Part shown: one piece after another, positions 25,690-42,909 of the stretch
How positions within the stretch are numbered: position 1 is the first letter of the stretch
How the letters are laid out: every line of letters begins with the position of its first letter
Assembly: GCA_943372295.1 (NCBI GenBank)
Contig: CALRYC010000001.1
Coordinates: 3,577-67,576, forward strand
Origin: Chitinophaga pinensis
Lineage (GTDB): Bacteria; Bacteroidota; Ignavibacteria; Kapaibacteriales; Kapaibacteriaceae
Direction of reading: 5' to 3'
Length of the DNA: 64,000 bases
Notes under the pieces: generated by a model
What the model saw: the letters and a program-made list of their open reading frames with translations, nothing else
What the model was told of the DNA's origin: nothing
The model's database searches: none
Translations under genes and position numbers: made by a program

Positions 25690-25732
25690 GCGCGAAGCGC
25701 ATTTACGGAATGACAGATTACAGAATGACGCT

Positions 25733-26095
25733 GTCATTGGTCATTCGTCATTCGTCATTCGTCATTGGCCCTTCGCCGCTATGCAACCCCGGGCCAAGGC
25801 CCGGGGCTAATATCAATCGTTTGGGATGCCGCGTCGCGCATTGTATTCCCCGGGCCAAGGCCCGGGGCTAATATTGATCGTTTGGGATGGCACGTCGCGC
25901 ATTGCGTTCCCACGTTTTCCCACGGCTGAAGCCGTGGGCTAATGTGTGGATCGTTTGGGATGTCGCGTCGCGCATTGTTTTCCCACGGCCGAAGCCGTGG
26001 GCTAATGTGCGGAACGTTTGGGACGGCACGTCGTCCACTCTGTAATGCGTTCAGCTGCCAAAACCTGAAACCTGAAACCTGAAACCTGAAACCTG
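25733..26095. repeat. Composite repeat block: (GTCATTC)x5, then four 62-72 bp hairpin units, then (TGAAACC)x5
   Basis: Hairpins are CCCCGGGCCAAGGCCCGGGG (x2) and CCCACGGCTGAAGCCGTGGG / CCCACGGCCGAAGCCGTGGG. Each is followed by CTAAT..GATCGTTTGGGATGCCGCGTCGCGCATTG-like tails. Confidence 0.9.
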
Positions 26096-26189
26096 CCCCG
26101 CACGACACCATACGTCGCCTGAGGCGATACATTTGCTTTGCAGAGTAATACACCGTACCGTTTTATAAACCCACCTCCATAGTTCCCAC

Positions 26190-27251
26190 ATGAGAGCAAC
26201 GCCCCTTACCTCCCGGCCAATACCGGAAGTGAACACGCACTTCTTTGAAGTGTCCGAAACACCGGTTCGTTACCGGGACATTTTTGATGAAGGGATCTTT
26301 ATGGCCTTTCCGGGCAAGAAGATCATCCGCAACCACAGCCTGAACCAGGGCATCAGCATTGTTGGCTCGGGGTTCCTGCCGGTGAGCCACGAGGAGGCAT
26401 TCAACCTTGGGGTGGCGGTGTTTGAGCTTCTGTTTGGGATCACTCCGCAGATCCACAAGGAACGGCTCAGTACCACAACCACCGATTACAGCGTCGACCT
26501 CGTTTCCGACGAGTGCACGATCGTCTTCAGCCGTCAGGGCTATCGGTATGTTGGCCCGGGTCAGCGCAGCCAATCAAAAGGTCGCCCGGCTTTTGAAAGG
26601 TTAAACGATACACTGGTGAATGCGGACGAGTCTCTCCTCGACGGCGGGCACCACATCGTGGAGAACTACCACGACGAGTATCACCCCTTCATCCGGGTAT
26701 CGAACTACCTGAGAGAGGGCATGCCCTTGAGCATCGAGCTCGGGTATTACCGGCAGCGCTGCACCAATGGCATGATGTACGATGCGATGTCGAGGATGAC
26801 CTTCACGCACCCCTATGAAGTCATGGACTTCCAGGTCATCAAGGGGGCTGCCCTGGACCATTTCAGTCGTTACAAGCGCGACTTCATGACCATGGCCGAA
26901 AAGCTCTGGAAGCTGCTCCTGATCCACATCCCCAAGGCCCAGATACGCTACGTGGCCTTCGACATCTTCGAAAAGCAGATCCTCCAGAAGAGTCCGGCAG
27001 AACGTCGCAAGCTCCAGGCCGTGCTCAGCGACCTTGTCGACCGGTACGTTGCGGAGATCGGCGAAAACCTGAACGCCGCCCTGAACGTAGCCACCGAGTT
27101 CTCCAAGCTCCTCGAGGGCAAGGAGGTCTCCCAAAGCACCATCCAAACCCTGGCCTCCAAGTGGGCCAACCGCGTCACCCGTGCGTCCTTTGACGTGCGT
27201 TCATACCTCGAAAAGATCCGCGACATCGAAGAGAGGGTGCTGGGGGCGTAG
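26190..27251 (+). CDS. DUF932-like protein (phage/plasmid-associated family)
   Basis: GISIVGSGFLPVSHEEAFNLG near the N-terminus and YHPFIRVSNYLREGMPLSIELGYYRQRCTNGMM resemble the DUF932 core (NShDGs...G.fR.vCsNG). Recalled from memory. Alternative start at 26301 (MAFPGKK). Confidence 0.4.
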   Translation: MRATPLTSRPIPEVNTHFFEVSETPVRYRDIFDEGIFMAFPGKKIIRNHSLNQGISIVGSGFLPVSHEEAFNLGVAVFELLFGITPQIHKERLSTTTTDYSVDLVSDECTIVFSRQGYRYVGPGQRSQSKGRPAFERLNDTLVNADESLLDGGHHIVENYHDEYHPFIRVSNYLREGMPLSIELGYYRQRCTNGMMYDAMSRMTFTHPYEVMDFQVIKGAALDHFSRYKRDFMTMAEKLWKLLLIHIPKAQIRYVAFDIFEKQILQKSPAERRKLQAVLSDLVDRYVAEIGENLNAALNVATEFSKLLEGKEVSQSTIQTLASKWANRVTRASFDVRSYLEKIRDIEERVLGA

Positions 27252-27367
27252 AGGAAGGTGGGGAAGGGGGCGGGGGAAACGGAGGTGGTTATCTTCGATC
27301 ACTCGCCCCGTGTAGCTTGCTAGGGGAGGAGGTGGGGGGGGGCATTTTGATAAGGAGAGTAACCCAT

Positions 27368-27754
27368 ATGCTCAGATTTCTTAGTGATCCCATGCATGGA
27401 ACATGGCTTGCTGCAGCGATTATCGTTGTCGGCGCAGCCCTATCAGTGTGTATGCATGATTTTGGTGTGCTTGCCCGGCTCGGCAATGCTGTGTTGTGCA
27501 TTAGCATCATCATGCTTTCTCGACCTCAGGTCACTGGTTCGAAGATTGCAATCGAAGTGACTGATGAAAGAACTGAGTTGAATGTTAATGGACCCGAGTA
27601 CTACCGAGTCAACAACCTTGCGGAACCTGAGTGGCTTCGAATCTCGGAGACCAACAAGCTAGCCGTGAACCAGCGAAGTCCAGTTCTTGCAATCGTAGGG
27701 ACACTGATTACCGGGTATGGAGAGTGCCTGAATATAGTTTTCCAATGGCTGTAG
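27368..27754 (+). CDS. Small hypothetical membrane protein
   Basis: Two or three hydrophobic helices (WLAAAIIVVGAALSVCM, AVLCISIIMLS, VLAIVGTLITGYG). Low-GC region. A G9 tract lies just upstream. Confidence 0.3.
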   Translation: MLRFLSDPMHGTWLAAAIIVVGAALSVCMHDFGVLARLGNAVLCISIIMLSRPQVTGSKIAIEVTDERTELNVNGPEYYRVNNLAEPEWLRISETNKLAVNQRSPVLAIVGTLITGYGECLNIVFQWL

Positions 27755-27886
27755 TTAGCATGGCGTTGGCACATACTTCTTGCCCTAGATTCGCAGAAGT
27801 GGCAAACATGAACACCTTTGTGTGTTGGATGTCAAGTACATTGTTGTTTTCCAGTGGATTGAGCTCATTCGAGTAAATGCGAAACC

Positions 27887-28330
27887 ATGTCAACCGTTTC
27901 CGACAGTAACTTTCCGAGCAACCTTGAGTCGAAGCGTACAACGCTCAAAGAGCAAGGCATCGAATATGGTCTGCTGGGCTTGCTGCAGGGTCCCAAGTAC
28001 GAGTACCGTAACGACATTACAGACCGCGCATCCCTGGAGAAAAACTTCCGGGAGAAGTTCGAGGCACTCAACCGCGTGACGCTCTCCGACGCGCAGTTTG
28101 CAAGGTTGTTGGATGAGATCGTTTCGCCGGATGGATTCGTGGCGTCGAAGACGCTACGCAACTACAATGCCTTTACCCGCGATGACGGAACGCCACTGAA
28201 CTATTCGCTGGTGAACATCAAGGACTGGTGCAAGAACCAGTTCGAGGTGATCGATCAGCTGCGCATGATCACCGACAACAGCCATCATCGGTATGATGTT
28301 TTACTTCTCGTGACTGCAGCCGCTTTTGTT
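27887..28330 (+). pseudogene. hsdR: Remnant of a type I restriction enzyme R subunit (HsdR N-terminal ~145 codons only)
   Basis: LEKNFREKFEALNRVTLSDAQFARLLDEI...FVASKTLRNYNAFTRDDGTPLNYSLVNIKDWCKNQFEVIDQL...HHRYDVLLLV follows the HsdR N-terminal pattern up to the PD-(D/E)xK Asp. The expected NGLPLVxIELK is then replaced by unrelated sequence, and no helicase domain follows. Confidence 0.6.
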
Positions 28331-28627
28331 TTGGAGAAAAGTACGTTGCGATACGTAATCGCCACCCGAAGGCACAGAACTGAGACTAGAGGGACACGCA
28401 GATCTTCGACGCAAGCGCCTCATTACAAGAGATCGAATAGGGGAACAAATCCAAACGAACAACGATGGATCTGTTCCGTAGGTGTTTGCATGCCTCTTCG
28501 TGTGCCATGCCAACTTAGGCCAATGGCTGCCTACGACTTTATGCAGCTGAGATAGGTTGAAGACTGCATCGATACTATGCCAACACCTGAATCTCATTCC
28601 ATACGTTGTTGAACTTGTCCTTCCCGC

Positions 28628-31600
28628 ATGAAACTCCTCAAGAACCAAGGTACTGAACGAGTCATAGACGAGCTGCGAAACAGCATTTCTGAGGGAGGCG
28701 GCTTTGACGTTGCAACCCCAATGCTCTCAATCTTCGCCTATGGGGAGTTGAGAGACACGCTTCGCAAGCTGGCGACAGGAAGGCTGCTGCTGCCGTTCGG
28801 GGACAAAGCCCCACTCGCCCTCCTTGGTTCGGATGCCGACCGTAGCTATCGCAACCAGCTCAAAACGCGAAAACTTGCCCAACACCTGCGGGATTGGCTG
28901 AACAAGTCCGTGGAGGTAAAGGGGGCCAGCGCCCCTATTCCGCAATCAACGCTCGTGGTCAACGATGCGGAGGGCAACCCAGTGAAAGTAATCGCTGGAA
29001 ACTGCCCTTTGAGCACTGACGGGCTGGGCATCACTCCAGCAAATCAGTTCAGTCTGGTTCAGGCGACTGAATCACCCGAAGAGTCGCAAGGTCTGGCTGC
29101 ATGGTTCACGCAGATGTGGGGAGCGCTCCCCGCTTCAGCGGATGGCAAAGCGGCCCTGCTGGCGCAATTGGACGAACTGACGGCCAAGCGCGAGCCTTCA
29201 CTTATCTATGCACTCACGCTTTACCACCTGTTCAAAGACAGGGGTGACGAGTTGGACGAAGAAAAGGTGGTAAAGTCCGCGACAGGTATTCGCGAGACTG
29301 TTGTCTGGAAGAAGCTATTCAAGTTTCAGCGCGATGGAGTTGTCGGTGCCATCGACAAGCTGGAGCGGCTCGGCGGGTGCATCATCGCTGATAGTGTGGG
29401 CCTCGGTAAAACATTCGAAGCGCTCGCCATCATCAAATATTACGAGCTCCGCAATGACCGAGTTCTGGTGCTCGCTCCAAAGCGCCTGCGTGATAACTGG
29501 ACGCTCTACAAGGCCAACGACCGCCGCAACGTGCTGGCGAAAGACCGCCTAAATTACGACGTGCTCAATCATACAGACTTGTCACGTGATGACGGCAAGT
29601 CAGGCGACATTGAGTTATCGCACGTCAATTGGGGCAATTACGATCTGGTCGTCATCGACGAATCGCACAACTTTCGCAACAAGGCATCACGCAACGACCG
29701 CGAAACGCGATACAGCCGTCTCATGGAGAAGGTTATCAAGGAAGGTGTGAAAACGCGAGTCTTGATGCTTTCGGCAACGCCGGTGAATAACCGGCTCGCT
29801 GATTTGAAGAACCAAATCGCTTTTGTCACCGAGGGCGTTGATACAGCGCTCGTCGACCATGGCATCCCAAGCATTGAAGCGACCGTTCGCAAAGCGCAGC
29901 TTCAGTTCAACCGCTGGCTGGCGGCGGAGCCTGCTGAGCGCACGCCGCCTCATTTGATTGAGATGCTGGGGTTTGACTACTTCAAGTTGCTGGACCTGCT
30001 AACCATCGCCCGGTCTCGTCGGCACATTGAAAAATACTACGGCATCGCGGAAACCGGGAAGTTCCCGGAACGACTAAAGCCGATCAACTACAAGCCCGAT
30101 GTTGACCGTGCCGGACAGTTCCGCTCCATACGCGAAATCAACAATGAGATCCGCCGTCTCACTCTCGCTGCTTACGCGCCCCTGCGCTATGTGCTGCCAG
30201 CCAAACAGGCGGCCTATGATGCAAAATACAGCACGAAGATTCGCGGGGGCGAGAGCTTCTTCCGGCAGGTGGATCGTGAGGAAAGCCTTATTCACCTCAT
30301 TCGCGTGAACGTGCTCAAGCGCATGGAAAGCGCCGTGACCTCGTTCGCGCTCACGCTTCAGCGCCAGCTTGCCGATGTGGAGGCGACGTTGGCGAAAATC
30401 GAAGCCCATGAGGAATCCATAGAAGAAGTCGAGATTGAAGATCTCGACATTGACGATCCTGCCTACGAAAGTCTGCTCGTCGGGCGCAAGGTGAAGGTGC
30501 TCGTCAAGGATGTTGATCTGGTTCGCTGGAAACAGGATCTCATTGAAGATCGGAACCGTCTCGCCACGCTTTACTCGGCTGCTGACCAAATCGGCGTCGC
30601 ACGCGATGCAAAGCTCGAAAAGCTTCGTGAAGTCATCGCCGGAAAGGTCAAGAATCCGCTGAACCCTGGTAACAAGAAGGTGATCGTCTTCACGGCTTTC
30701 GCTGACACTGCCAAGTATCTCTATGAGCAGCTTGGCGGCTGGGCGCAGTTGGAACTTGGCGTTCACTCCGCGCTGGTCACGGGCGGAGGGCACAATCAGG
30801 CCACGCTACCGAATCTGCGCAAAGACCTGTCCAGCATCCTCACGGCGTTCTCGCCGCGCTCCAAAGAGCGTCCAGCAGAACTCGCCGGTGAAGGTGACAT
30901 TGATATTCTGATTGCCACTGACTGCATCAGCGAAGGTCAGAACCTTCAGGACTGCGATTACCTCATCAACTACGACATCCACTGGAACCCAGTTCGCATC
31001 ATTCAGCGCTTCGGGCGAGTAGACCGTATCGGCTCGCCAAATAGCCGCATACAGCTCGTGAACTTCTGGCCGAACATCGAGCTGGAGGAATACATTAATC
31101 TGGAGCAGCGCGTTTCTGGCCGCATGGTGCTGCTTGACATCTCCGCCACTGGCGAGGAAAACATTATCGAGCAGCAGTCGGGCAACCAGATGAACGATCT
31201 CGAATACCGCCGTACGCAGCTTCTCAAGCTGCAAGATGCGGTGATTGACCTTGAAGACCTATCCAGCGGCGTTTCCATCGCCGACCTCACGCTCACGGAT
31301 TTCCGCATCGACCTTGCTGAGTTCCTGCGAAACCACGCGGGCAAACTAGAAACGATGCCACTGGGCACTTTTGCGGTCACTACCTCGCCGGAAGCCGCAA
31401 TTCCTCCTGGAATCGTGTTCTGTCTGCGTGCCGAAGGTGAAGCCGCAGAGAAGTCCTTTGAGCCTGGTTATCCGCTGGCTCCGCATTATCTGGTTCACGT
31501 TGGCGATGATGGCAGTGTTCTCCTGCCATTCACTCAGGCAAAGGCAGCCCTCGACCTCTTGAAGCGCGTTTGCATCGGGCGTGATCTGCCCGACGCGGAA

Positions 31601-31828
31601 GCCTGCGACCGCTTCGACAAAGCCACCAAAGGCGGCGAAGACATGAGCCAACCGGGCAAGCTGCTGTCGGCGGCCGTATCGAGCGTCATCGGCAAGAAGG
31701 AAGAGCGGGCCGTTGCCAGCCTCTTCACTCCAGGTGGCACTCATGCCATCAAGGGAGAGTTCGCCGGCATCAACGACTTTGAGGTCATCGCTTACCTTGT
31801 CATTCTTCCCGGAGAGAATGCAGCATGA
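28628..31828 (+). CDS. SNF2-family ATPase/helicase with a ~220-aa N-terminal extension
   Basis: FQRDGV...IIADSVGLGKTFEALAII (I), DLVVIDESHNFRNK (II), VLMLSATPVNNRLADL (III), ATDCISEGQNLQDCDYLINYDIHWNPVRIIQRFGRVDRIGS (V/VI). Confidence 0.9.
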   Translation: MKLLKNQGTERVIDELRNSISEGGGFDVATPMLSIFAYGELRDTLRKLATGRLLLPFGDKAPLALLGSDADRSYRNQLKTRKLAQHLRDWLNKSVEVKGASAPIPQSTLVVNDAEGNPVKVIAGNCPLSTDGLGITPANQFSLVQATESPEESQGLAAWFTQMWGALPASADGKAALLAQLDELTAKREPSLIYALTLYHLFKDRGDELDEEKVVKSATGIRETVVWKKLFKFQRDGVVGAIDKLERLGGCIIADSVGLGKTFEALAIIKYYELRNDRVLVLAPKRLRDNWTLYKANDRRNVLAKDRLNYDVLNHTDLSRDDGKSGDIELSHVNWGNYDLVVIDESHNFRNKASRNDRETRYSRLMEKVIKEGVKTRVLMLSATPVNNRLADLKNQIAFVTEGVDTALVDHGIPSIEATVRKAQLQFNRWLAAEPAERTPPHLIEMLGFDYFKLLDLLTIARSRRHIEKYYGIAETGKFPERLKPINYKPDVDRAGQFRSIREINNEIRRLTLAAYAPLRYVLPAKQAAYDAKYSTKIRGGESFFRQVDREESLIHLIRVNVLKRMESAVTSFALTLQRQLADVEATLAKIEAHEESIEEVEIEDLDIDDPAYESLLVGRKVKVLVKDVDLVRWKQDLIEDRNRLATLYSAADQIGVARDAKLEKLREVIAGKVKNPLNPGNKKVIVFTAFADTAKYLYEQLGGWAQLELGVHSALVTGGGHNQATLPNLRKDLSSILTAFSPRSKERPAELAGEGDIDILIATDCISEGQNLQDCDYLINYDIHWNPVRIIQRFGRVDRIGSPNSRIQLVNFWPNIELEEYINLEQRVSGRMVLLDISATGEENIIEQQSGNQMNDLEYRRTQLLKLQDAVIDLEDLSSGVSIADLTLTDFRIDLAEFLRNHAGKLETMPLGTFAVTTSPEAAIPPGIVFCLRAEGEAAEKSFEPGYPLAPHYLVHVGDDGSVLLPFTQAKAALDLLKRVCIGRDLPDAEACDRFDKATKGGEDMSQPGKLLSAAVSSVIGKKEERAVASLFTPGGTHAIKGEFAGINDFEVIAYLVILPGENAA

Positions 31829-32577
31829 GCGCTGCTTCCGTCATTGCGGCACTTGGAATCCCTGCTGATGCGAGGGTAGATCAGCGCATTGCCAAGAAGC
31901 TCCTCGTGGAGAACGGCGCACCCACTGCTGCCGACAAGCGGAAGATCAACGACGGCATCGAAGACTTGATTTGGGTTGCTGCGTTGAAGCCCGACAACAT
32001 TGGGGTGCCTGCCTACAAAGACGATTCGAGGGAATACCTAGAAATCGCCGTGCTGCACGTGAACTTCAGGCCGGAGGCCAAAGCAGCGAGGCTGAAGGAA
32101 CTCATTCACCGCGCCATCCCGTACCCCGTTTTTCTGATAGTTTCGCAGGCTGCATATAGTGAGCATTCACTGGCGCATCTGCGCTGGTCGCAGGGGCAAG
32201 CCGGGCAAACAGTTTTGGACGGCTCTGTCATCAGCGCAAGCCTGAGTGAAGGCAGCGCCGTCACAGCGGCCTTCCTGGCTGCGCTCAACTTGACAGCCCA
32301 GCCCCGGCAAAATCTTCACGCCCTTTATCAAGGGTGGATTGAGACCTTTGAGGCCTATGCCGCCGCGCAGCATACCGGTAACTTCGTTCCCGCCACCGAT
32401 GCATCCACCGCAGAGCGTCGCCGTGTGGCTCTGGCAGAGCATGAGCGCCTCACCCGCGATATGGCGGCGCTTCGCGCTCGTGCCGCCAAGGAAAAGCAAC
32501 TTAATCGTCGCGTGGAGATCAATCTTCAGCTTCAACACCTTGAGTCGCGCCTCTCGGAGGCTCGCAACTACCTCTAA
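31825..32577 (+). CDS. DUF4391-like protein
   Basis: 250 aa. The start overlaps the SNF2 stop by 4 bp. The pattern RIAKKLLVENGAPTAADKRKINDGIEDLIWVAALKPDNIGVPAY...YLEIAVLHVNF...LIHRAIPYPVFLIV matches my recollection of DUF4391, which typically sits between SNF2 helicase and methylase genes. Confidence 0.6.
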   Translation: MSAASVIAALGIPADARVDQRIAKKLLVENGAPTAADKRKINDGIEDLIWVAALKPDNIGVPAYKDDSREYLEIAVLHVNFRPEAKAARLKELIHRAIPYPVFLIVSQAAYSEHSLAHLRWSQGQAGQTVLDGSVISASLSEGSAVTAAFLAALNLTAQPRQNLHALYQGWIETFEAYAAAQHTGNFVPATDASTAERRRVALAEHERLTRDMAALRARAAKEKQLNRRVEINLQLQHLESRLSEARNYL

Positions 32578-32590
32578 ACAGGACTCCAAC

Positions 32591-34471
32591 ATGCAGAATA
32601 TCACAGCCGAATCCCCCGAATCAAAGACCCCCGACTTAGCTGCCGAAAATCTTGCCCAGCTCAAGACGCTCTTTCCCGAATTGGTGACGGAGAGTAAGGA
32701 TGGCATCGTGGTGAATGTGGATGTGCTCAAGCAGCTCGTGGGCGACAAGGTCATCACCGACAGCGAGGAGAAGTACGGACTCAACTGGTATGGCAAACGC
32801 CGCGCTCGGCAGATCGCCCTGACACCCAGTACCGGTATACTGCGCCCCTGCCCAGAGGACAGCGTAGACTGGGACACAACTCAGAATCTCATGATCGAGG
32901 GCGACAACCTCGAAGTCCTAAAGCTCCTCCAGAAATCCTACGCCGGGAAGGTGAAGCTCATCTACATTGACCCGCCCTACAACACCGGCAAAGACTTCGT
33001 TTATCCAGACAACTTCCAGGATAACATCAAAAATTACTTGGAACTCACTGGTCAGGCCAGCGAAGGAGGCCGCAAACTCTCGTCCAATACTGAAGCCTCC
33101 GGCCGCTTTCACACCGACTGGCTAAATATGATATATCCGCGCATCAAGCTGGCACGGAATCTACTACGGGAGGATGGGGTGATATTCATCAGCATCGATG
33201 ATAACGAAGTCGATGACCTTCGGAAAGTATGTGACGAAGTTTTTGGGGAGGAAAACCGCATTGGCATAATTTGTCATAAGGCTCGGGCCTCTGTCTCGAA
33301 CGACAAGATAATCTCGTCCAATCATAACTTTGTTATGCTTTACGCAAAAAACGGGGCGCTCGTCTTTGAGAACCGTTCAAAGTTCGGTCTGCCTCCAGAA
33401 CTGGATGGTTTCGACAAGAAGGACCAAAAGGGCGAGTTCAAGCATGTCCCGGTTGACGGCCCAGGCGGCGCTGCCAAAGGGAATCCATATTACACGTTTC
33501 TTGGTGTGACTGGCTATTGGCGCTTTTCCGAGGAGCAGATGAAAAGGATGCATGAAGACGGGTTAATCGAAAAGGTTGGAGGCGGTCTTCAACAGAAATA
33601 TTATCTCGAAGACGCGAAGCAGTCGCGGAAGACAGATACGACTTGGTGGGATGATAAACTTTACACATCCACTGCATCTTCAAGGCTTAAAGAGCTAATG
33701 GGAGGCGAGGCTTTTGATAATCCAAAACCCATTGAGTTAGTGCAACGCATGCTTGAACTATGGGTGCGGTCTGAGGCGGATATTGTCTTAGATTTTTTTG
33801 GAGGCTCCGGAACGACTGCCCATGCTACGTTTGCGCAGACTGCAAAAGATGGAGTCACGCGGCGATTCATTTTAGTGCAACTGCCAGAGCCCCTCGATCC
33901 TGAAAACAAGGAACAAAAAACAGCAGCGGCGTTCTGTGACAAGCTTGGCATGCCCCGCAACATCGCCGAATTGACTAAAGAGCGCCTGCGTAGGGCCGGA
34001 CAGAAAATCCGCGCGGAGAACCCACTTTTCGCCGGCGATCTCGGCTTCCGCGTCTTCAAGCTCGATTCCACAAACATCCGCGAATGGGACCCGAAACGCG
34101 ACAATCTCGCCGAAACTCTCGAAGCCTCCATTGAGCACCTCAAGATCGACCGTACCGAGCAGGACATCCTCTTTGAACTGCTCCTCAAACTCGGCCTAGA
34201 TCTATGCGTGCCCATTGAGCCGAAAAAAATCGCCGGATACGACGTTCACAGCATCGGCGGAGGCTCGCTCATCGTCTGCCTCTCAACCGCCATCCCGCGA
34301 GCCGACGTGGAGACACTCGCACTGGGCCTCGTGGCGTGGCACAAGGCATTGAAGCCTGCTGGAAAAACCACCGTCGTCTTCCGCGACAGTGCCTTCGCCA
34401 ACGACGTGGCCAAAACTAACCTCACCGCTATACTTCACCAGCATGGTCTCGAAACCGTGCGTAGCCTGTAA
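32591..34471 (+). CDS. mod: Type III-like (beta-class) N6-adenine DNA methyltransferase, Mod paralog 1
   Basis: Motif IV IYIDPPYNTGKDF precedes motif I VLDFFGGSGTTAHA. ATG at 32591 (MQNITAESPE); the track start 32339 lies inside the previous gene. Confidence 0.88.
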   Translation: MQNITAESPESKTPDLAAENLAQLKTLFPELVTESKDGIVVNVDVLKQLVGDKVITDSEEKYGLNWYGKRRARQIALTPSTGILRPCPEDSVDWDTTQNLMIEGDNLEVLKLLQKSYAGKVKLIYIDPPYNTGKDFVYPDNFQDNIKNYLELTGQASEGGRKLSSNTEASGRFHTDWLNMIYPRIKLARNLLREDGVIFISIDDNEVDDLRKVCDEVFGEENRIGIICHKARASVSNDKIISSNHNFVMLYAKNGALVFENRSKFGLPPELDGFDKKDQKGEFKHVPVDGPGGAAKGNPYYTFLGVTGYWRFSEEQMKRMHEDGLIEKVGGGLQQKYYLEDAKQSRKTDTTWWDDKLYTSTASSRLKELMGGEAFDNPKPIELVQRMLELWVRSEADIVLDFFGGSGTTAHATFAQTAKDGVTRRFILVQLPEPLDPENKEQKTAAAFCDKLGMPRNIAELTKERLRRAGQKIRAENPLFAGDLGFRVFKLDSTNIREWDPKRDNLAETLEASIEHLKIDRTEQDILFELLLKLGLDLCVPIEPKKIAGYDVHSIGGGSLIVCLSTAIPRADVETLALGLVAWHKALKPAGKTTVVFRDSAFANDVAKTNLTAILHQHGLETVRSL

Positions 34472-34480
34472 TCAATCGTT

Positions 34481-36394
34481 ATGAAGCCACTCACCATACA
34501 AGACCCTGAAACCAAATCTGCCGACGTGCTCGCAGAGAATATCGAACATTTGAGGACTCTTTTTCCAGAGGCGTGGACCGAAGGCAAAGTTGATTTCGAT
34601 GTCCTCAAGCAACTGCTTGGCGGTCTCGTGGATGAGCGCGAGGAGAAATATGGCCTAAATTGGCATGGCAAACGCCGCGCTCGCCAGATCGCCCTCACAC
34701 CCAGTGCTGGCACACTGCGCCCCTGCCCAGAGGACAGCGAAGACTGGGACAACACGCAGAACCTCATGATCGAAGGCGACAACCTGGAGGTGCTGAAGCT
34801 CCTGCAGAAGAGCTACGCCGGGAAGGTAAAGCTTATTTACATCGACCCGCCCTACAACACCGGCAAAGACTTCGTCTATCCCGACAACTTCCAGGACAAC
34901 ATCAAGAACTACCTCGAAGTCACCGGCCAGACCGGCGAGGGTGGTAAGAAACTCTCCTCCAACACCGAGGCCTCCGGCAGATTCCACACCGACTGGCTCA
35001 ACATGATGTATCCGCGAGTGAGGCTTGCGAAGACTCTATTGAGCAAAAACGGTCTGCTAATGATTTCGACCGATGAAACAGAAGCGGACAACCTCAGAAA
35101 GCTCTGCGATGAAGTGTTTGGTTCGGAAAACTTTGTGGAGCGAATCGTATGGAAAAACAAATATGGGTCCGGCGCATTAACAAAGGGCTTCGCCAATGTG
35201 CATGAATACATTCTCGTTTATTCACGAGAGCCTATTCAGGAAATTGCAGCCCCCCTCGATGATGAACAGCGATCCGCATTTAACCAAAAGGACGAAAAGT
35301 TCGTCAAGCGTGGCGGTTTTCTGACGCAGCCACTCGCGACGACTAGCAAAGATGACAGACCTAATTTGGTCTATCCGCTAATTCACGAAGGTCGTGAAAT
35401 TTGGCCCGACAAACAATGGATTTGGGCTAAAGACCGGCTCGAAGAAGCTTATCGAAACAATGAATTAGTAATTAACGAATCAGGTGGGAAATTCAGTGTC
35501 CGGGCGAAGCAATACCTTCGCGACAAAAACGGAATCGAACGTTTAGGGAAACCACTTTCATTGATGAACGGTCCGTTTAATCAAGAAGGCACAAAAGACA
35601 TTGCATCACTTTTCCCAGAAAAGGTATTCACTTTCCCGAAGCCGATAGCACTTCTCAAATATTTCGTGTCGTTTGTTGTGAACGGTGACAAAACAGGTGA
35701 GGGGATTTACTTGGATTTCTTTGCTGGATCAGGCTCTTTCGCCCACGCAATTTATAGCCAGAATTCTTTGGATGGCGGGAAACGCAAATTCATCGTGGTT
35801 CAGCTACCAGAGCCGCTTGATAAGGAAAGTAATGAACAAAAAATTGCAGCAACATTCTGCGACAAGCTCGGCAAGCCCCGCACTATCGCAGAACTGACTA
35901 AAGAACGCCTGCGACTGGCAGGAAAAAAGATTCGTGAAGAGAACCCGTTGTTCACGGGTGACCTGGGCTTCCGTGTCTTCAAGTTGGACTCAACCAACAT
36001 TCGCGAGTGGGACCCAAACCGCGACAACCTCGCCGAAACCCTCGAAGCCTCAATTGAGCACCTCAAATCTGACCGCACCGAGCAGGACATCCTCTTCGAA
36101 CTTCTCCTCAAGCTAGGCCTGGATCTTTGCGTACCCATTGAGACAAAAAAAATCGCTGGGCACGACGTTCACAGTATTGGCGGCGGCTCGCTTATCGTCT
36201 GCCTCTCAACCGCCATCGCGCAAGCCGACGTGGAGACACTGGCACTTGGACTCGTGGCGTGGCACAAGGATTTGAAGCCTGCTGGAGAAACCACCGTCGT
36301 CTTCCGCGACACTGCCTTCGCCAACGACGTGGCCAAAACTAATCTCACCGCCATCCTCCACCAGCACGGTATCGAAACCGTGCGTAGCCTGTAA
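34481..36394 (+). CDS. mod: Type III-like (beta-class) N6-adenine DNA methyltransferase, Mod paralog 2 with a different central region
   Basis: IYIDPPYNTGKDF and YLDFFAGSGSFAHA. The N-terminal ~210 aa and C-terminal ~190 aa are near-identical to paralog 1, and the middle ~190 aa are unrelated. Confidence 0.88.
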   Translation: MKPLTIQDPETKSADVLAENIEHLRTLFPEAWTEGKVDFDVLKQLLGGLVDEREEKYGLNWHGKRRARQIALTPSAGTLRPCPEDSEDWDNTQNLMIEGDNLEVLKLLQKSYAGKVKLIYIDPPYNTGKDFVYPDNFQDNIKNYLEVTGQTGEGGKKLSSNTEASGRFHTDWLNMMYPRVRLAKTLLSKNGLLMISTDETEADNLRKLCDEVFGSENFVERIVWKNKYGSGALTKGFANVHEYILVYSREPIQEIAAPLDDEQRSAFNQKDEKFVKRGGFLTQPLATTSKDDRPNLVYPLIHEGREIWPDKQWIWAKDRLEEAYRNNELVINESGGKFSVRAKQYLRDKNGIERLGKPLSLMNGPFNQEGTKDIASLFPEKVFTFPKPIALLKYFVSFVVNGDKTGEGIYLDFFAGSGSFAHAIYSQNSLDGGKRKFIVVQLPEPLDKESNEQKIAATFCDKLGKPRTIAELTKERLRLAGKKIREENPLFTGDLGFRVFKLDSTNIREWDPNRDNLAETLEASIEHLKSDRTEQDILFELLLKLGLDLCVPIETKKIAGHDVHSIGGGSLIVCLSTAIAQADVETLALGLVAWHKDLKPAGETTVVFRDTAFANDVAKTNLTAILHQHGIETVRSL

Positions 36395-36403
36395 TCGATC
36401 GAT

Positions 36404-39400
36404 ATGAAACTCCATTTCGAACCGAACCTAGATTACCAAGCTCAGGCTATTGATGCGGTCTGCGACCTCTTTAATGGACAAGAGATCTGCCGGACAGAGT
36501 TCACGGTCACTCGTGATGCGAATGACATTCAGGGACGAATGGCTTTTGCCGAGAACGACCTCGGTATTGGGAACCGCCTGACGTTGCTCGATGACGAGAT
36601 TCTCGCCAACCTGAACGCTATCCAGCTCAGACATGGCCTAGCTCCATCGACTTCGCTTGTGTCGGGTGATTTCACGGTAGAGATGGAGACAGGCACCGGG
36701 AAGACCTATGTGTACCTGCGCACGATTTTTGAGCTGAACAAGCGATATGGCTTCACGAAGTTCATCATCGTAGTTCCCTCTGTTGCAATCAAAGAGGGCG
36801 TCTATCACACGATTGAAACAGCCAAAGAGCACCTGCAGGGACTTTATTCAGGAGTGCCTTTCGATTTCTTCCTCTATGACTCCGCCAAGCTCGGACAGGT
36901 GCGCAACTTTGCCACTAGCCCGCAGATTCAAATAATGGTAATGACCGTGGGTGCCATCAATAAGTTCGGTGACGAACAAGCGGCGGCCTCCGAGGAAGCC
37001 AACGATGTGTCACGCCGCGAGAAGTCCAAGAATGTCATGTATCGTGCCAGCGAGAAGACGGGCGGCGAGAAGCCGATTGATCTCATTCGTGCCACGCGCC
37101 CCATCATCATCGTTGACGAACCACAGAGTGTTGAAGGCGGTCTGGACGGCAAGGGCAAGAAGGCCATGGAGCGGATGAACCCACTATGCAGCCTGCGCTA
37201 TTCGGCCACTCCGAAGCATTCGCAACACATGGTCTTCAAGCTGGATGCTGTCGATGCCTACGAGCGCAAGCTCGTGAAGCAGATCGAAGTGGCTGCTGCC
37301 ACTGTCGAGGGCGGTTTCAACAAGCCTTATGTCCGACTTGTCTCGGTCAGTAACAAGCGCAATGTCATCACTGCTAAGGTCGAACTGGACATGCAGATAG
37401 CAACAGGTGTGAAACGCCAAGTTGTCGATGTCCAAGACGGCGAGAACCTCGAGATGACAACTGAGCGTGCAGTCTATGGAGACTTCCGCATTGGGGAAAT
37501 CCGCGTGGTCAAGGGTGACGAGTTCCTCGAACTGCGTTTCCCCGGTGGCGAGCAATACCTGAGGCTGAAGGAAGCTCATGGCGATGTTGAGCCACTGACA
37601 GTGCAGCGCCAGATGATCGCTCGGACCATCAAAGAGCATTTTGAGAAAGAAAAGCGCCTCGTGCCACAGGGCATCAAGGTTTTGAGTCTGTTCTTCATTG
37701 ATGCCGTTGAGAAATACCGGCAGTACGACGCCGAGGGCAATCCTGTGAAGGGCGACTACGCCCGCATCTTTGAGGAGGAGTATCGTCGGCTTGCCAAGCA
37801 TCCCGATTACCAGACGCTTTTCAAAGAAGTGGATGTGACCATTGCCGCCGAAGAGGTCCACAACGGCTACTTCTCCATCGACAAGAAGAAGGTCGGCAAC
37901 AAAACCGTCGAGGTCTTCAAAGACACCAGCGGCTCCACAAAAGCCGATGACGACACCTACAATCTCATCATGCGCAAGAAGGAGGAGCTTCTTAGCATGA
38001 GCACGCCTTTGAAGTTCATCTTCTCTCACTCGGCGCTGCGCGAGGGCTGGGACAACCCGAACGTCTTCCAAATCTGCGCCCTTCGCGAGATGGCAACAGA
38101 ACAACAGCGCAGGCAGACCATTGGTCGTGGCCTGCGCCTCTGTGTCAGGGCTGAAGGCAATGACTTCGTGCGCGTACGTGGGTTTGAGACGAACACGCTC
38201 ACCGTGATCGCGACAGAGAGCTATGAGCAGTTCGCCGAACGTCTTCAGAAGGAAATCGAGGACGAAACGGGGATTCGCTTTGGGATCGTGGAAACGCATC
38301 AGTTCGCTGGAATACCAGTTACGGGTACAGATGGTAAATCCACCCCGCTCGGGCTCGAGAAGTCGAAAGCTCTTTGGGAGTATCTTAGAACCACCGGACT
38401 GTTAGATTCCAAAGGGAAGGTTCAGGATACCCTACGTAAGGCACTCAAAGATGGCACACTCACGCTACCGGAGCCGTTGGCCGCACAACTGCCACAGGTG
38501 AAGGAGATTCTGCGTAAACTGGCCGGACGTCTAGAGATCAAGAATGCCGATGAACGGGTCGTGGTGAAGACACGGCAAGCGGTGCTGCAAAGCGCAGAGT
38601 TCAAGGCGCTGTGGGACCGTATCAAGCACAAGACAACGTATCGCGTGCAGTTTGACAATGAGGGACTGTTGGCCGCGTGCATTCATTCCCTCAAAGAAGC
38701 TCCGCCGATTACCCGAACACGCCTACAATGGCGCATGGCCGATCTTTCGATTGGCCGCGCAGGTGTTGAGGCGATAGAAACTTCCACTTCGGCTCATGTA
38801 ACGCTCGACGAGGGAGACATCGAGCTTCCCGACATTCTGACGGACCTCCAGGACCGCACCCATCTGACCCGTCGGAGCATTTGTCGTGTTCTGGTTGAAA
38901 GTGGTCGTCTCGACGACTTCAAACGTAATCCGCAGCAGTTCATCGAACGGACAGCGGAGGTCATCAATAGGGCGAAGCGAATGGCACTGGTGGACGGCAT
39001 CCGTTATCAGCGTATCGGCGCTGAAGAATACTATGTGCAGGAGCTCTTCGAGACAAAGGAATTTTCAGGCTATCTGAAGTCGATGGTTGCAGCTGAAAAG
39101 AGCGTTCACGAGCATGTAATCTACCAGTCAGACACTGAGAGGACTTTTGCTGAGCAGCTAGAAAAGAACGAAGCCATCAAGGTGTACGCCAAGTTGCCAT
39201 CATGGTTTCAAGTTCCCACCCCGCTTGGCCCCTACAATCCCGATTGGGCAGTGCTCGTGAGCAAGGACGGCAAGGAGCAGCTTTACTTTCTGGTCGAAAC
39301 GAAGAGCAGCCTCTATGCCGATGACCTGCGCGACAAGGAAAGCGCCAAGATTAAATGCGGTCAAGCGCATTTTGCAGAACTTGCTACTCACAACAGCTCT

Positions 39401-39451
39401 GCGGCTCGCTTTGTGAAGGCGACGAAGTTGGATGATGTGCTAGAGCTCTGA
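36404..39451 (+). CDS. res: Type III restriction enzyme Res subunit (SF2 helicase + C-terminal PD-(D/E)xK nuclease)
   Basis: MKLHFEPNLDYQAQAID..., EMETGTGKTYVY (Walker A), IIIVDEPQS, HSALREGWDNPNVFQIC, C-terminal YNPDWAVLV...LYFLVETKSS. Confidence 0.9.
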   Translation: MKLHFEPNLDYQAQAIDAVCDLFNGQEICRTEFTVTRDANDIQGRMAFAENDLGIGNRLTLLDDEILANLNAIQLRHGLAPSTSLVSGDFTVEMETGTGKTYVYLRTIFELNKRYGFTKFIIVVPSVAIKEGVYHTIETAKEHLQGLYSGVPFDFFLYDSAKLGQVRNFATSPQIQIMVMTVGAINKFGDEQAAASEEANDVSRREKSKNVMYRASEKTGGEKPIDLIRATRPIIIVDEPQSVEGGLDGKGKKAMERMNPLCSLRYSATPKHSQHMVFKLDAVDAYERKLVKQIEVAAATVEGGFNKPYVRLVSVSNKRNVITAKVELDMQIATGVKRQVVDVQDGENLEMTTERAVYGDFRIGEIRVVKGDEFLELRFPGGEQYLRLKEAHGDVEPLTVQRQMIARTIKEHFEKEKRLVPQGIKVLSLFFIDAVEKYRQYDAEGNPVKGDYARIFEEEYRRLAKHPDYQTLFKEVDVTIAAEEVHNGYFSIDKKKVGNKTVEVFKDTSGSTKADDDTYNLIMRKKEELLSMSTPLKFIFSHSALREGWDNPNVFQICALREMATEQQRRQTIGRGLRLCVRAEGNDFVRVRGFETNTLTVIATESYEQFAERLQKEIEDETGIRFGIVETHQFAGIPVTGTDGKSTPLGLEKSKALWEYLRTTGLLDSKGKVQDTLRKALKDGTLTLPEPLAAQLPQVKEILRKLAGRLEIKNADERVVVKTRQAVLQSAEFKALWDRIKHKTTYRVQFDNEGLLAACIHSLKEAPPITRTRLQWRMADLSIGRAGVEAIETSTSAHVTLDEGDIELPDILTDLQDRTHLTRRSICRVLVESGRLDDFKRNPQQFIERTAEVINRAKRMALVDGIRYQRIGAEEYYVQELFETKEFSGYLKSMVAAEKSVHEHVIYQSDTERTFAEQLEKNEAIKVYAKLPSWFQVPTPLGPYNPDWAVLVSKDGKEQLYFLVETKSSLYADDLRDKESAKIKCGQAHFAELATHNSSAARFVKATKLDDVLEL

Positions 39452-40020: not shown

Positions 40021-40794
40021 ATGATGACGTCAGATACTCTTGCAAAATATTTTCATGGCCGTTATATGGAACGGCTTGAGCGTGAGTTGGACCTTAATTG
40101 GAAGCGTCTGAATATTGGTTTGATTGCCCTGATCGCATCGATCGCCGGATACGGTGCCGTAATCAAGGAACAAGTTCATGTCTCGCAGGGCAACGGGGAT
40201 CAGTTTCTTTTGTTTGCTGCTAGGACTTGTTCATTCGAGGTCAGTGTGCTTTACACCTTGGCGGGGCTTGCCGTGATATTTCTCGTCGTCTACATGTTGA
40301 TTCTCGTCAATCAGGGCCGGCATTGGTATCGCGTAAATGAAGCGAAGGTATCATGGTTCGAGAACATCATGCTGTTCCCAGAGTCGGTAGGTAGCAAGAT
40401 TGACTCCCCCTCAGTTTCATCAATTTATCAGATTGGAATTGGAACCTCTGGCAAGGTAAGCGTTAATCGTGGAATCAAGATCCCACTTTATAGCACGGGA
40501 GCTGTGTTCAGCGTTCTCAGCGCGCTAAATCTGTTGAACGTGTTGCTGACTCTGGGGAGTTTTTCGGCTGACTATCCTCTAGCGCCAACGGCATTCCTTT
40601 TGTCCATCCTTATTTTCATCGGGATCATCACCATGGACTGGATGTCGCGCGGAACAATAGATCTGACCGATTTCAATAAACTGCGTCCCGTTGACAACTG
40701 TACTCAGCGCGATGTTTCGAGTTTGATTCGTCAGCTTGACTTTCAGATGAATGAGCATGGTGAATCCCGAGTTGATCAGCGTGATGGTGATTGA
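40021..40794 (+). CDS. Hypothetical multi-pass membrane protein
   Basis: About 4 hydrophobic helices (LNIGLIALIASIAGYGAVI, VLYTLAGLAVIFLVVYMLILV, AVFSVLSALNLLNVLLTLG, AFLLSILIFIGIITM). Low-GC region. No recognisable motif. Confidence 0.4.
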   Translation: MMTSDTLAKYFHGRYMERLERELDLNWKRLNIGLIALIASIAGYGAVIKEQVHVSQGNGDQFLLFAARTCSFEVSVLYTLAGLAVIFLVVYMLILVNQGRHWYRVNEAKVSWFENIMLFPESVGSKIDSPSVSSIYQIGIGTSGKVSVNRGIKIPLYSTGAVFSVLSALNLLNVLLTLGSFSADYPLAPTAFLLSILIFIGIITMDWMSRGTIDLTDFNKLRPVDNCTQRDVSSLIRQLDFQMNEHGESRVDQRDGD

Positions 40795-40979
40795 TTGGGA
40801 GCCTTAAGAAAGACCCATGAGTTCCTGTCAATCCTGCGCAACTAATTCCAACGTTGCTTGAGGAACATCGCGGTAACTACGAGATGATGCAGTGCGGCGC
40901 AGCCAGCAAGGTCCGTACTCGTTGCCTTTGTTCGTAAATGAAAGTTCACGAGCGTCCGAACATTTAACCCCTATACTGC

Positions 40980-41582
40980 ATGACCCTCACCCCACGCTTC
41001 GAACACGCGCTCGTATACACGGCGCAGGCCCATAACGGGCAACTCCGCAAGGGAACACAGATCCCGTATCTCTCACATCTGTTATCGGTGGCCAGCATAG
41101 CCCTCGAGTATGGAGCGAATGAGGATGAGGCCATTGGGGCTCTTCTTCATGACGCGGGCGAGGATTCTGGTGGCGATGAGCGTATCCTGGACATCCGAAA
41201 TGTGTTCGGTGATGCCGTCGCTGATATTGTCCAGGGTTGTACTGATGCAGTGGTCTTACCAAAGCCACCATGGCAGGAGCGCAAAGAGAAATACATTGCC
41301 GGCGTGCCGCACGAGCCAGTATCAATTCGCTTCATTTCAGCTGCAGACAAGCTACATAACGTGCGATCGATCATCCGTGACTACCGCGCTCTCGGTGATG
41401 GACTGTGGCCCCGCTTCAAAGGTGGTAAGGACGGGAGCCTCTGGTACTATCGCGCGCTGGTGGATGCGTATCGACAAGGAACGAACTACGATGATTCCGC
41501 ACAGGCAGCCTCCCATACGGAACTCATCGATGAGCTGGACCGGGCTGTGACAGAGTTAGAGGTGATGGTGGGGAAGGGATGA
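40980..41582 (+). CDS. Small alarmone hydrolase-like HD-domain protein (stand-alone SpoT/Mesh1-type hydrolase domain)
   Basis: FEHALVYTAQAHNGQLRKGTQIPYLSHLLSVASIALEYG...AIGALLHDAGEDSGG...FGDAVADIVQGCTD...SAADKLHNVRS parallels the HD region of the RelA/SpoT gene at the start of this window. Confidence 0.7.
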   Translation: MTLTPRFEHALVYTAQAHNGQLRKGTQIPYLSHLLSVASIALEYGANEDEAIGALLHDAGEDSGGDERILDIRNVFGDAVADIVQGCTDAVVLPKPPWQERKEKYIAGVPHEPVSIRFISAADKLHNVRSIIRDYRALGDGLWPRFKGGKDGSLWYYRALVDAYRQGTNYDDSAQAASHTELIDELDRAVTELEVMVGKG

Positions 41583-42349
41583 GTGCGACAAACCCAAAGG
41601 GCAAAGTTCAGACACTACTGGGTAGCCGCCGTCTCAACGTTATGAATGCTAGGGTGAAGCGAATTGCCGCAAAAGCGGCTGTTCAGGTCCTTCTTGGGTT
41701 TGCGATAGCGTCATTGCTCTTCACAGCCCCTTGGTGGCTGCTTTCCTTAGGATTGTTCGATGGCATGAAGCCAAATGAAGTTGGGGACTATCTCGGCGGA
41801 ATTGCCGGTTTTGTGTCATCAACGATCACCGTTGTTCTTCTTTACTTCGTCTGGAGCTCCGAAAGGAAGGATGATCGCAAAGCAACCTTCATGACAAGCT
41901 TGATGGTGTTGCTAGAGATCCACGTTGAAGAAAGAGAACGATTGCTGGCCAAGAAATCAGACGATAGCTATTTCAAGTGGTTCTGGACCAACCATATCCA
42001 TCACTTGCTGATATGTACCGATATCGTAGCTCGAAAAAAAGAGGCAGAGAAGATCTACAGTGAGCAGTACAATCACGTTGCGAGCTGGTTCCTTTCAGTT
42101 CTGCGAGTCATCCGGTTCATCGAAGATTCTGACCAGCCAGAGAGCGACAAGCATGAGGCTATGAAGCTTTTCAGGCTATTCTGTGAGCGTGAAGAGCAGC
42201 GTGCACTGTTTCTGTTGCTTTTTACGAAAGATTCCACTGCCGAGAGTCCGATACTTCTGTTGAAGCATAGCTTTTTCGAGCATGCTGGCTTCAAAGAAGA
42301 CCCAAAGCTCAGCGCCCTCTGGGAGCAGAGGTTGGAAGGGTGGAGTTAG
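41579..42349 (+). CDS. Membrane protein resembling the putative abortive-infection AbiC family (putAbiC)
   Basis: The start overlaps the HD-gene stop (ATGA). Two N-terminal TM helices flank NEVGDYLGGIAGFVSS (GDxxGG motif as recalled for putAbiC), followed by a helical cytoplasmic domain. Confidence 0.5.
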   Translation: MSATNPKGKVQTLLGSRRLNVMNARVKRIAAKAAVQVLLGFAIASLLFTAPWWLLSLGLFDGMKPNEVGDYLGGIAGFVSSTITVVLLYFVWSSERKDDRKATFMTSLMVLLEIHVEERERLLAKKSDDSYFKWFWTNHIHHLLICTDIVARKKEAEKIYSEQYNHVASWFLSVLRVIRFIEDSDQPESDKHEAMKLFRLFCEREEQRALFLLLFTKDSTAESPILLLKHSFFEHAGFKEDPKLSALWEQRLEGWS

Positions 42350-42450
42350 TAAGTACGACTTTGCCGAGCGTGCATAATGCCGCGGATACTCGACACGGAA
42401 TCCGACGCTAGTTGGCCACGAATTGCGAGTAATCTTACCGAAGGAGTGGT

Positions 42451-42511
42451 CAGTATGCTCCGGAATGGGGGCAGAATGCTCCGCCACGGGGGCAGTATCC
42501 GGGGGGGGGGG
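42451..42511. repeat. Three degenerate 21-bp tandem units ending in a G11 homopolymer (42501-42511)
   Basis: cagtatgctccggaatggggg / cagaatgctccgccacggggg / cagtatccggggggggggg. Confidence 0.85.
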
Positions 42512-42537
42512 CGTACGCGCCGGACTCTCCAACGTTG

Positions 42538-42909
42538 CTAGAAATGTAGGGGATCTACGTTTAGGCTCGAGTTCGACGCGGATATAGGACAATCGAACCG
42601 TTTGCTAATTTCTATGACTAGCTCCCTGAACCAGGTGGGGGCGAGTGGGGATACGACAACCATATGTATGATCCCAGCTAGGTCAACAGGCACACTTATT
42701 CCCGTGGGTCGTTCATCTGAGTAAATACGGAGGATTGCGCGCACCTCCTTTTCATGCTCGAACGCAGCTCGCTTCCGGAATGGCGCGTCCTGATGATGCA
42801 AAATCACATCTTCGTAATCGATGTATTGAACCCTGCCTATCTCAATCTCGTAACGATCGCCTTCTACGTGTGATCTTCTCCCGTTTTCGTTGTCAGGAAG
42901 AGTGTCGTG
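42538..42909 (-). pseudogene. C-terminal fragment of a DUF2971-like protein (no N-terminus, no ATG)
   Basis: The frame is open from the stop at 42910-42912 and reads ...GRVQYIDYEDVILHHQDAPFRKRAAFEHEKEVRAILRIY.... FxxExExR is the DUF2971 C-terminal pattern as I recall it. The track ORF starts at a GTG at 42807. Confidence 0.4.

Follow-up and report, generated by a model that had tools for sequence, protein, structure and literature searches.

Here we describe a restriction locus in a 64,000-nucleotide stretch of DNA (hereafter the window) from contig CALRYC010000001.1 of assembly GCA_943372295.1, deposited as Chitinophaga pinensis. At this locus, genes for the methyltransferase (Mod) and endonuclease (Res) of a Type III system stand together with those of a SNF2-family ATPase, a DUF4391 protein and a second Mod:

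28628..31828, plus strand, SNF2-family ATPase gene (1066 aa)
31825..32577, plus strand, DUF4391 gene (250 aa)
32591..34471, plus strand, Mod1 gene (626 aa, counted from the ATG at 32591, a sensible start)
34481..36394, plus strand, Mod2 gene (637 aa)
36404..39451, plus strand, Res gene (1015 aa)

An earlier reading of the letters without database searches (the sequence-only reading) had described five co-directional, tightly packed genes at 28628-39451, and the open reading frame (ORF) positions that we obtained reproduce this layout in full. That is, the SNF2 stop and DUF4391 start codons share an ATGA at 31825-31828, and the remaining intergenic gaps measure 13 bp (DUF4391 to Mod1), 9 bp (Mod1 to Mod2) and 9 bp (Mod2 to Res). 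Comparison with other genomes shows SNF2-DUF4391-Mod-Res to be one conserved, horizontally mobile cassette, of which the window holds an intact copy with an extra Mod.

In Type III systems, Mod dimers recognize short asymmetric sites and methylate one strand, and Res cuts unmodified foreign DNA in an ATP-dependent reaction for which two unmodified sites in inverse orientation are required. The window core would be expected to behave likewise. For the classical Res, ATP is only a switch that permits sliding along DNA. The motifs that the sequence-only reading had called complete in Mod and Res, DPPY before FxGxG in the former and GTGKT, DEPQ and PD...ExK in the latter, could all be located (plus strand throughout):

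32969-32980, DPPY of Mod1 (aa 127), followed at 33797-33811 by FGGSG (aa 403)
34844-34855, DPPY of Mod2 (aa 122), followed at 35720-35734 by FAGSG (aa 414)
36692-36706, GTGKT of Res (aa 97)
37115-37126, DEPQ of Res (aa 238)
39239-39304, PD...ETK of Res (aa 946-967)

PADLOC matched both Mods to MTase_III (726 bits for Mod1, 703 bits for Mod2) and Res to REase_III (1229 bits), and Pfam reported N6_N4_Mtase for Mod1 and ResIII plus RE_endonuc for Res. Among PDB sequences, Mod1 matched the Mod of 6k0w (E 3e-73) and EcoP15I Mod (E 6e-65), and the sole match of Res was EcoP15I Res (E 5e-59). The core is therefore a genuine Type III system. As in EcoP15I and EcoP1I, homologous Mod and Res proteins are encoded on the same strand in the order mod then res, both Mods have the beta-class motif order (DPPY before F(G/A)GSG), and Res joins a superfamily 2 (SF2) ATPase to a C-terminal PD-(D/E)xK endonuclease. 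Three differences set the locus apart: about 80% of the clade to which the window Res belongs adds SNF2 and DUF4391, the window copy has two Mods, and Res scores only 346 bits against NCBIfam PRK15483 (equivalog cut-off 564), which places it in a separate Type III Res subfamily. The earlier description, a Type III-like system accompanied by two accessory genes of unexplained role, therefore holds, and neither the PADLOC and NCBIfam profiles nor the open-access literature searched yielded a role in restriction for SNF2 or DUF4391.

To judge how general the arrangement is, we sampled DUF4391-anchored loci from species-representative genomes, first 18 and then 80, the second scan using two narrow peptide patterns and giving 401 confirmed stretches; synteny was scored by tblastn with the five window proteins wherever the contig was long enough. 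One arrangement recurs in about 100 loci, which belong to many bacterial phyla and to archaea: SNF2 lies upstream of DUF4391, and Mod followed by Res downstream of it, all on one strand. Genuine exceptions to this order were three loci (L040, L043 and L085). An order and strand that recur in about 100 independent loci argue that the arrangement is not due to chance, and the co-occurrence of DUF4391 with SNF2, Mod and Res, proposed as a check by the sequence-only reading, is seen in the loci sampled. The hosts comprise Verrucomicrobiota, Planctomycetota, Acidobacteriota, many Proteobacteria, Nitrospirota, Chloroflexota and others, and protein identities of 50-70% across hosts so distant indicate horizontal spread. 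Plasmid-borne cassettes were found in Enterococcus faecium, Lactococcus, Shewanella, Acinetobacter sp. NEB149, E. coli (pHS30-1) and Bacillus cereus, and an archaeal one in Methanomethylovorans hollandica; these retain the order, though their DUF4391 proteins are just ~20-30% identical.

The four proteins also appear to have diverged together. Across 79 complete loci, their pairwise distances correlate at 0.83-0.95, with SNF2 and DUF4391 at the top (0.946) and the SNF2-DUF4391 pair against Res and Mod at r 0.83-0.90; the mean identity of SNF2 (0.64) equals that of Res. The genes that flank the window copy are not conserved in related loci. As a description of the window, the five-gene layout of the sequence-only reading stands; as a general unit it gives way to four genes, the second Mod being a rare, recurrent add-on. 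No description of a cassette of SNF2 with Type III genes was found in the open-access literature searched, REBASE not included, so that calling it undescribed is provisional.

A second sample, anchored on Res, consisted of 80 loci kept from at least 591 confirmed stretches, of which 56 were informative. The four-gene form accounted for 45 of these and Mod-Res only for the remaining 11. When Res proteins were clustered (average linkage on pairwise identity), the Mod-Res-only loci were dispersed through the tree, with four-gene loci as their nearest neighbors at 65-80% identity; they sit among unrelated surrounding genes, and their Mods retain the C-terminal domain of the family. In four species of the Burkholderia cepacia complex, the two-gene form is stable and intact, with Res proteins 84-99% identical. 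The SNF2-DUF4391 pair has been lost repeatedly, and Mod-Res can persist without it. Conversely, DUF4391 occurred without Mod-Res in one case (L043) among ~78 informative loci. This near absence, combined with the scatter of the Mod-Res-only loci, argues that the pair is an accessory module depending on the Type III core.

The gene junctions of the cassette are insertion hotspots for guest defense genes. Gaps of >400 bp holding such genes were seen between SNF2 and DUF4391 in 18/98 loci, between DUF4391 and Mod in 36/98, and between Mod and Res in 54/97; the guests include Abi_2, YhcG, RhuM, GmrSD-N/DUF262, AbiEi/Eii, VapC-PIN and PLD genes. Examples, drawn from loci L002-L173, are the following:

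L006:12875-13795, guest-gene insertion
L008:12789-13976, guest-gene insertion
L016:10771-12723 and 14754-16554, two guest-gene insertions
L017:6557-8335, guest-gene insertion

Such insertions raise the question whether SNF2-DUF4391 might itself be a self-contained defense or DNA-repair module that merely travels with the Type III genes, perhaps in synergy with them. Besides the frequency of guests inside the cassette, the existence of Mod-Res on its own would fit two systems side by side, as would three loci (L178-L180) in which SNF2 is inverted relative to the remaining genes. However, a free-standing module is hard to reconcile with a DUF4391 that lacks Mod-Res in just one of ~78 informative loci, with an order kept down to 20-30% identity and in archaea, with co-evolution of the pair with Res and Mod (r 0.83-0.90), and with the lack of any nuclease or other effector in the SNF2 protein itself. 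We consider this explanation quite improbable.

The SNF2 protein consists of a pseudo-PLD (phospholipase D) domain, a helical linker, the SNF2 motor and a C-terminal region of ~240 aa without a family match. Its features are as follows:

28628..29137, plus strand, N-terminal PLD-fold domain (~aa 1-170), no catalytic HxK
29330..31117, plus strand, SNF2 ATPase core (motif search and Pfam)
29399-29413, motif I of the core, GLGKT
29657-29668, motif II, DESH
29771-29782, SATP
31004-31033, motif VI, QRFGRVDRIG

Together with the Pfam matches to SNF2-rel_dom and Helicase_C, these four motifs identify a SNF2-family protein; Pfam additionally reported ResIII, and the PDB sequence matches were RapA, ISWI and SNF2. 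The top PADLOC profile was 'HKD+Snf2' (PDLC01075, E 3e-123), whose alignment spans aa 151-1058 and so does not cover the N-terminal domain.

By sequence, the ~230 aa ahead of the motor have no Pfam match. Their AlphaFold2 (AF2) model is confident (pLDDT 85), and Foldseek with the modelled N-terminal domain returned SauUSI as the top match (7clg, E 6e-5), followed by FAM83 pseudo-PLD, BfiI, Tdp1 and PssA. Although the fold is that of PLD (HKD) nucleases, the HxK(x)4D motif is missing: a motif search found no H.K tripeptide anywhere in the window protein, the N-terminal alignment of 49 SNF2 homologues has no conserved His/Lys pair (HxK) and shows near-invariant P105 and Q106 where HxK would be expected, and HxK is likewise missing from 8 distant plasmid homologues. 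The modelled structure and the alignments thus predict a PLD-fold domain that is dead as a nuclease. The sequence-only reading had correctly noted the absence of an HxK motif from this extension, which is nevertheless not featureless, given its PLD-nuclease fold with SauUSI as best Foldseek match. The C-terminal 251 aa had no Pfam match even at E<=10. An active nuclease within the SNF2 protein was considered and rejected, the PLD fold being without HxK and the C-terminal 251 aa without a Pfam match. The protein looks like a PLD-helicase effector that has lost its nuclease and kept its motor intact.

SauUSI itself has the same order of an N-terminal PLD fold and an SF2 motor and gives the best structural match to the N-terminal domain. 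SNF2 proteins of the window type differ from it in being without HxK in all members examined, without a domain that reads methyl-cytosine, and in being encoded inside a Type III operon. More distant SNF2 paralogues, 25-30% identical, occur on Deinococcus and Nostoc plasmids (L181 and L183), where they adjoin large PglX/TaqI-like N6 methylases and small hypothetical proteins and do not lie within MANTIS operons. Their arrangement suggests further uncharacterized methylase-plus-SNF2 systems.

The second accessory protein was assigned with confidence to its family. A profile search, whose failure would have refuted the sequence-only reading by its own terms, places 31825..32577 in DUF4391 along its full length (PF14335, E 1.4e-69, 235 bits against a gathering cut-off of 29.9; aa 10-243 of 250, profile positions 1-232 of 232); PADLOC and NCBIfam profiles gave no match to the protein. 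An exhaustive HMMER search (E<=1e-3) found 1212 DUF4391 clusters at 50% identity. In the AF2 model (pLDDT 89, pTM 0.84), aa 1-155 form an alpha/beta domain, and aa 164-248, at the C-terminal end, three long helices. These helices carry much of the strongest conservation of the family, including the AKEKQLNRRVE-N stretch; an IPYP turn and the C-terminal helix motif KEKQ-NR-VE-N rank among the most conserved features overall. Foldseek searches of PDB and BFVD with the model gave nothing at E<=1e-3, with top query-normalized TM-scores of ~0.2, and a profile search of PDB sequences returned noise only. A PD-(D/E)xK nuclease, a half-subunit like Type I HsdS, or another known fold is accordingly unsupported by either the PDB-sequence profile search or Foldseek. 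In the open-access literature searched, no function has been assigned to DUF4391/PF14335; the mentions found are an apparent slip for DUF7941 and a row in an enrichment table. DUF4391 diverges faster than its partners (mean identity 0.42, versus 0.64 for SNF2 and for Res). Distant members proved too divergent when aligned to provide search patterns, and one protein (P0379) had no genome matches.

In a variant seen on six contigs of one metagenomic lineage (L178:6649-19344, also L179 and L180), DUF4391 forms the C-terminal domain of a 1419-aa SF1 helicase with RNase_H_2 and AAA_11/AAA_12 domains; upstream of it stands the SNF2 gene in inverted orientation, and downstream come Mod and Res. This fusion of DUF4391 to a helicase fits a role as an adaptor that couples a helicase to its partners. 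On a Listeria monocytogenes plasmid (NZ_CP041212.1, L175:8989-17798), a homologous SNF2...Mod-Res operon with a shorter Mod has two small hypothetical ORFs (185 and 140 aa) in the DUF4391 position, which the DUF4391 profile does not recognize and which could represent replacement, extreme divergence or decay. In addition, there are chimeric short ORFs (P0178 and P0209) that join the SNF2 N-terminus straight to the C-terminus of DUF4391 or of Res; they look like internal-deletion remnants of cassettes.

The nearest studied analogue in logic is MANTIS/Gao_RL (BREX-related type 2; bioRxiv 10.64898/2026.09.23.753747). Both systems have four parts, namely an ATPase, a small protein without structural relatives, an N6-methyladenine (m6A) methylase and a helicase-nuclease, and both contain two ATPases. 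Moreover, the MANTIS effector MtsD combines a SauUSI-like PLD domain with an SF2/SNF2 motor, the architecture from which the window SNF2 appears to be derived. In contrast, no component family is shared: the methylase here is a Type III beta-class Mod outside the MtsC group, and neither the DUF499 AAA+ protein (MtsA) nor the MtsB small protein (a family written DUF3870 in the MANTIS preprint and DUF3780 in the NAR 2026 paper) turned up when the five genes and their flanks were scanned with Pfam and PADLOC. The PLD domain is active in MtsD and dead here, where the nuclease resides in the separate Res.

The parallel suggests a rival in which SNF2 and DUF4391 would do for Mod what MtsA and MtsB do for MtsC, loading it onto DNA or activating it there, and so would act on methylation mainly or on both activities. 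In its favor, the four-part logic is the same, the MANTIS ATPase and small protein are needed for methylation, and DUF4391 always adjoins Mod, either directly or with guest genes alone between them. Yet intact Mod-Res without the pair exists in several lineages, a state that would be lethal or would decay if methylation required the pair while Res was active; it is established biochemically that Type III Mods, EcoP15I Mod among them, need no help to methylate; and the relatives of the SNF2 protein are PLD-helicases of the effector type and not AAA+ loaders of the DUF499 family. A role of the pair in methylation is, in our view, unlikely.

The explanation toward which we lean, with modest confidence, is a Type III core within a conserved cassette that also supplies an accessory second motor. 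That SNF2 and DUF4391 act through this core, and on the restriction side, is a tentative proposal with clearly less than an even chance. The SNF2 protein would be descended from PLD-nuclease/helicase effectors of the SauUSI type. It would have retained the PLD fold, probably for dimerization, together with an intact translocase motor for double-stranded DNA, and would have lost its own nuclease, with the consequence that cutting would be left to Res. DUF4391, by virtue of its long and highly conserved C-terminal helices, may serve as the adaptor that couples the SNF2 motor to Mod and Res. A second motor that genuinely translocates could act on the long-range communication that cleavage requires, either strengthening or relaxing it, or could clear phage DNA that is covered by protein. 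In a stronger version, possible in our eyes and a little more doubtful, SNF2 (dead PLD) and DUF4391 would be an obligate partner module in a four-subunit, two-motor restriction machine, with DUF4391 as a new-fold adaptor docking the translocase onto Mod2Res.

Several observations weigh against this accessory-motor explanation. The two-gene survivors indicate that the pair is dispensable for persistence, and they would fit a regulatory or merely additive role as well. Guest genes at the junctions mean that tight translational coupling is not required, and a scan of the window locus for promoters and terminators performed no better than on shuffled sequence. In MANTIS, it is methylation and not restriction on which the additional ATPase and the small protein act. 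Lastly, the faster evolution of DUF4391 could point to an arms-race sensor instead of a structural adaptor.

Some of these points are shared by another rival, a safeguard or regulator. Here, the motor would strip or reposition Mod-Res on host DNA and so limit self-restriction after replication or in a new host, or it would counter anti-restriction proteins of phages. A pair that is dispensable yet usually retained is consistent with such a role, as is fast evolution of DUF4391, expected when a protein faces phage antagonists; the mobility of the cassette between phyla would also bring recurring establishment in unmethylated hosts. This idea is purely conjectural, though, with no sequence hint of a sensing domain, and the site-orientation rule of Type III enzymes already prevents self-cleavage. 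We regard it as hardly less improbable than two systems side by side.

Mod1 and Mod2 are 60% identical overall. The proteins have their catalytic and C-terminal arms in common (aa 61-180 and ~480-626, 87-100% identity), and their central domains, at 7-27% identity, are unrelated:

32763..33256 (Mod1) and 34638-35131 (Mod2), plus strand, 5' conserved arm, 79% nucleotide identity (blastn, repeat search)
~33263-33775, divergent central domain of Mod1, presumed target-recognition domain (TRD)
~35138-35695, divergent central domain of Mod2
33865..34471 (Mod1) and 35788-36394 (Mod2), plus strand, 3' conserved arm, 85% nucleotide identity

The junction from stop codon to next ATG was duplicated along with the 3' arm. 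A recent in situ duplication was rejected, the arms being just 79-85% identical in nucleotides with many synonymous changes. The number of synonymous differences instead argues for an old duplication with purifying selection on both copies. Most related loci have a single Mod; tandem Mods were seen in a member of the Nitrospirales (L065), one of the Magnetococcales (L146) and Acinetobacter lwoffii (L133). In L065 and L146, the two Mods of a locus are closer to each other than to those of other loci and diverge in their centers, and by these sequence comparisons the tandem-Mod pattern is of independent origin in the two; in L133 the pattern is less clear. A lactococcal plasmid carries a degraded second Mod, and Type III configurations with 'a second M' have been noted in the lactococcal defensome (PMC12418389). 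For EcoP15I, PMC4490356 describes a site read by one Mod protomer and methylated by the other. By analogy with this division of labor, homodimers or heterodimers of Mod would each give two specificities on one Res, and the two Mods of the window may thus add a second target specificity served by a single Res.

Among other known systems, DISARM class 1 had been raised by the sequence-only reading, as it likewise has a SNF2-family helicase next to an adenine methylase. DrmD and DrmMI are BrxHII/RapA-like and PglX-like proteins (PMC12458937). The five genes and the nine scanned in the flanks include neither DrmA, DrmB (DUF1998) nor DrmC (PLD), and the window SNF2 scored 152 bits against NCBIfam DISARM_DrmD (cut-off 610) and 108 against DrmD_b (cut-off 950). 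We therefore rejected DISARM class 1. The remark that DUF1998 and PLD genes are lacking was accurate, and the likeness itself, with none of five DISARM features looked for present and SNF2 not a DrmD, is superficial. On a Bacillus cereus plasmid (NZ_AP022875.1, L176:4143-17876), a DISARM DrmA gene and a DUF1998 gene lie directly upstream of a full cassette and are co-directional with it; the SNF2 match of this locus recurs on six B. cereus plasmids. This combination could be a hybrid or synergistic array.

Hma (BREX-related type 1) also pairs a SNF2-family helicase with a methylase, and its gene junctions attract inserted defense genes, including DUF262/GmrSD; insertions occur in 66.5% of Hma systems (PMC11232893), compared with 18-56% per junction here. 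It differs in that HmaA has an active C-terminal nuclease and DUF1156 and DUF499 partners, and its profile matches the window SNF2 weakly (E 3e-23). Membership in MANTIS/Gao_RL, Hma or ARMADA was rejected, as the component families differ. Finally, in the R-H enzymes CglI and NgoAVII, a separate helicase-like 'H' subunit gives the nuclease ATP-driven long-range movement (PMC5861437). The motor of those enzymes is of the DEAD-Z1 type, not SNF2, and they have no DUF4391 and no Type III Mod or Res.

The stretch that holds the cassette has a GC content of 0.50-0.55, versus ~0.60 in the flanks. Its neighbors on both sides (23062-28555 and 40021-45606) are other defense-type genes: a Type IV enzyme of the GmrSD kind with fused RAMA and DUF4268 domains (23062-25689); a 222-aa fragment upstream of SNF2 (27887-28555) that matches only the N-terminus of Type I HsdR; and an HD protein, a putAbiC-like protein, DUF2130 and a WYL/WCX regulator. 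The HsdR-N fragment and the other flanking genes were considered as cassette members and rejected, because the flanks vary between related loci. The window is also dense in intergenic repeat families (25876-25987, 56765-56876, 9.6-11.7 kb, 18.77-19.76 kb and 46.0-46.2 kb), which comprise 16-nt tandem units (GAGGGAAGCCGAAGCG), a 216-nt triple tandem at 19023-19676 and hairpin units of 63-73 nt. One inverted pair (25876-25987 and 56765-56876; 112 nt, 84% complementary) flanks a 30.8-kb segment with the cassette inside, and may mark either the boundary of a mobile unit or dispersed REP-like elements.

Type III is the textbook case of restriction by two proteins, and in the subfamily sampled here most members add a SNF2-type motor and a protein of unrecognized fold. 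The scale is considerable, with at least 591 Res-anchored loci and 1212 DUF4391 clusters at 50% identity in bacteria and archaea. PADLOC and NCBIfam naming misses the SNF2-DUF4391 pair, which also seems to have escaped surveys in which such loci are counted among ordinary R+M Type III systems (PMC12418389). With MANTIS, BREX, DISARM and ARMADA, several methylation-based defenses have recently been found to rely on multiple ATPases. Natural plasmids of E. coli, Enterococcus, Lactococcus and Bacillus cereus carry homologous cassettes, and a Listeria plasmid carries a related variant, so that what SNF2 and DUF4391 contribute is directly testable. Such plasmid-borne copies may limit phage therapy, the control of dairy phages and gene transfer. 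If the cassette does encode a two-motor machine, the rules of Type III restriction would be altered, for example through a relaxed requirement for two head-to-head sites, directional communication between sites or the ability to overcome protein-coated phage DNA; a subtype of its own would then be warranted for the cassette, in which tandem Mods would multiply the specificities served by one set of motor and nuclease.

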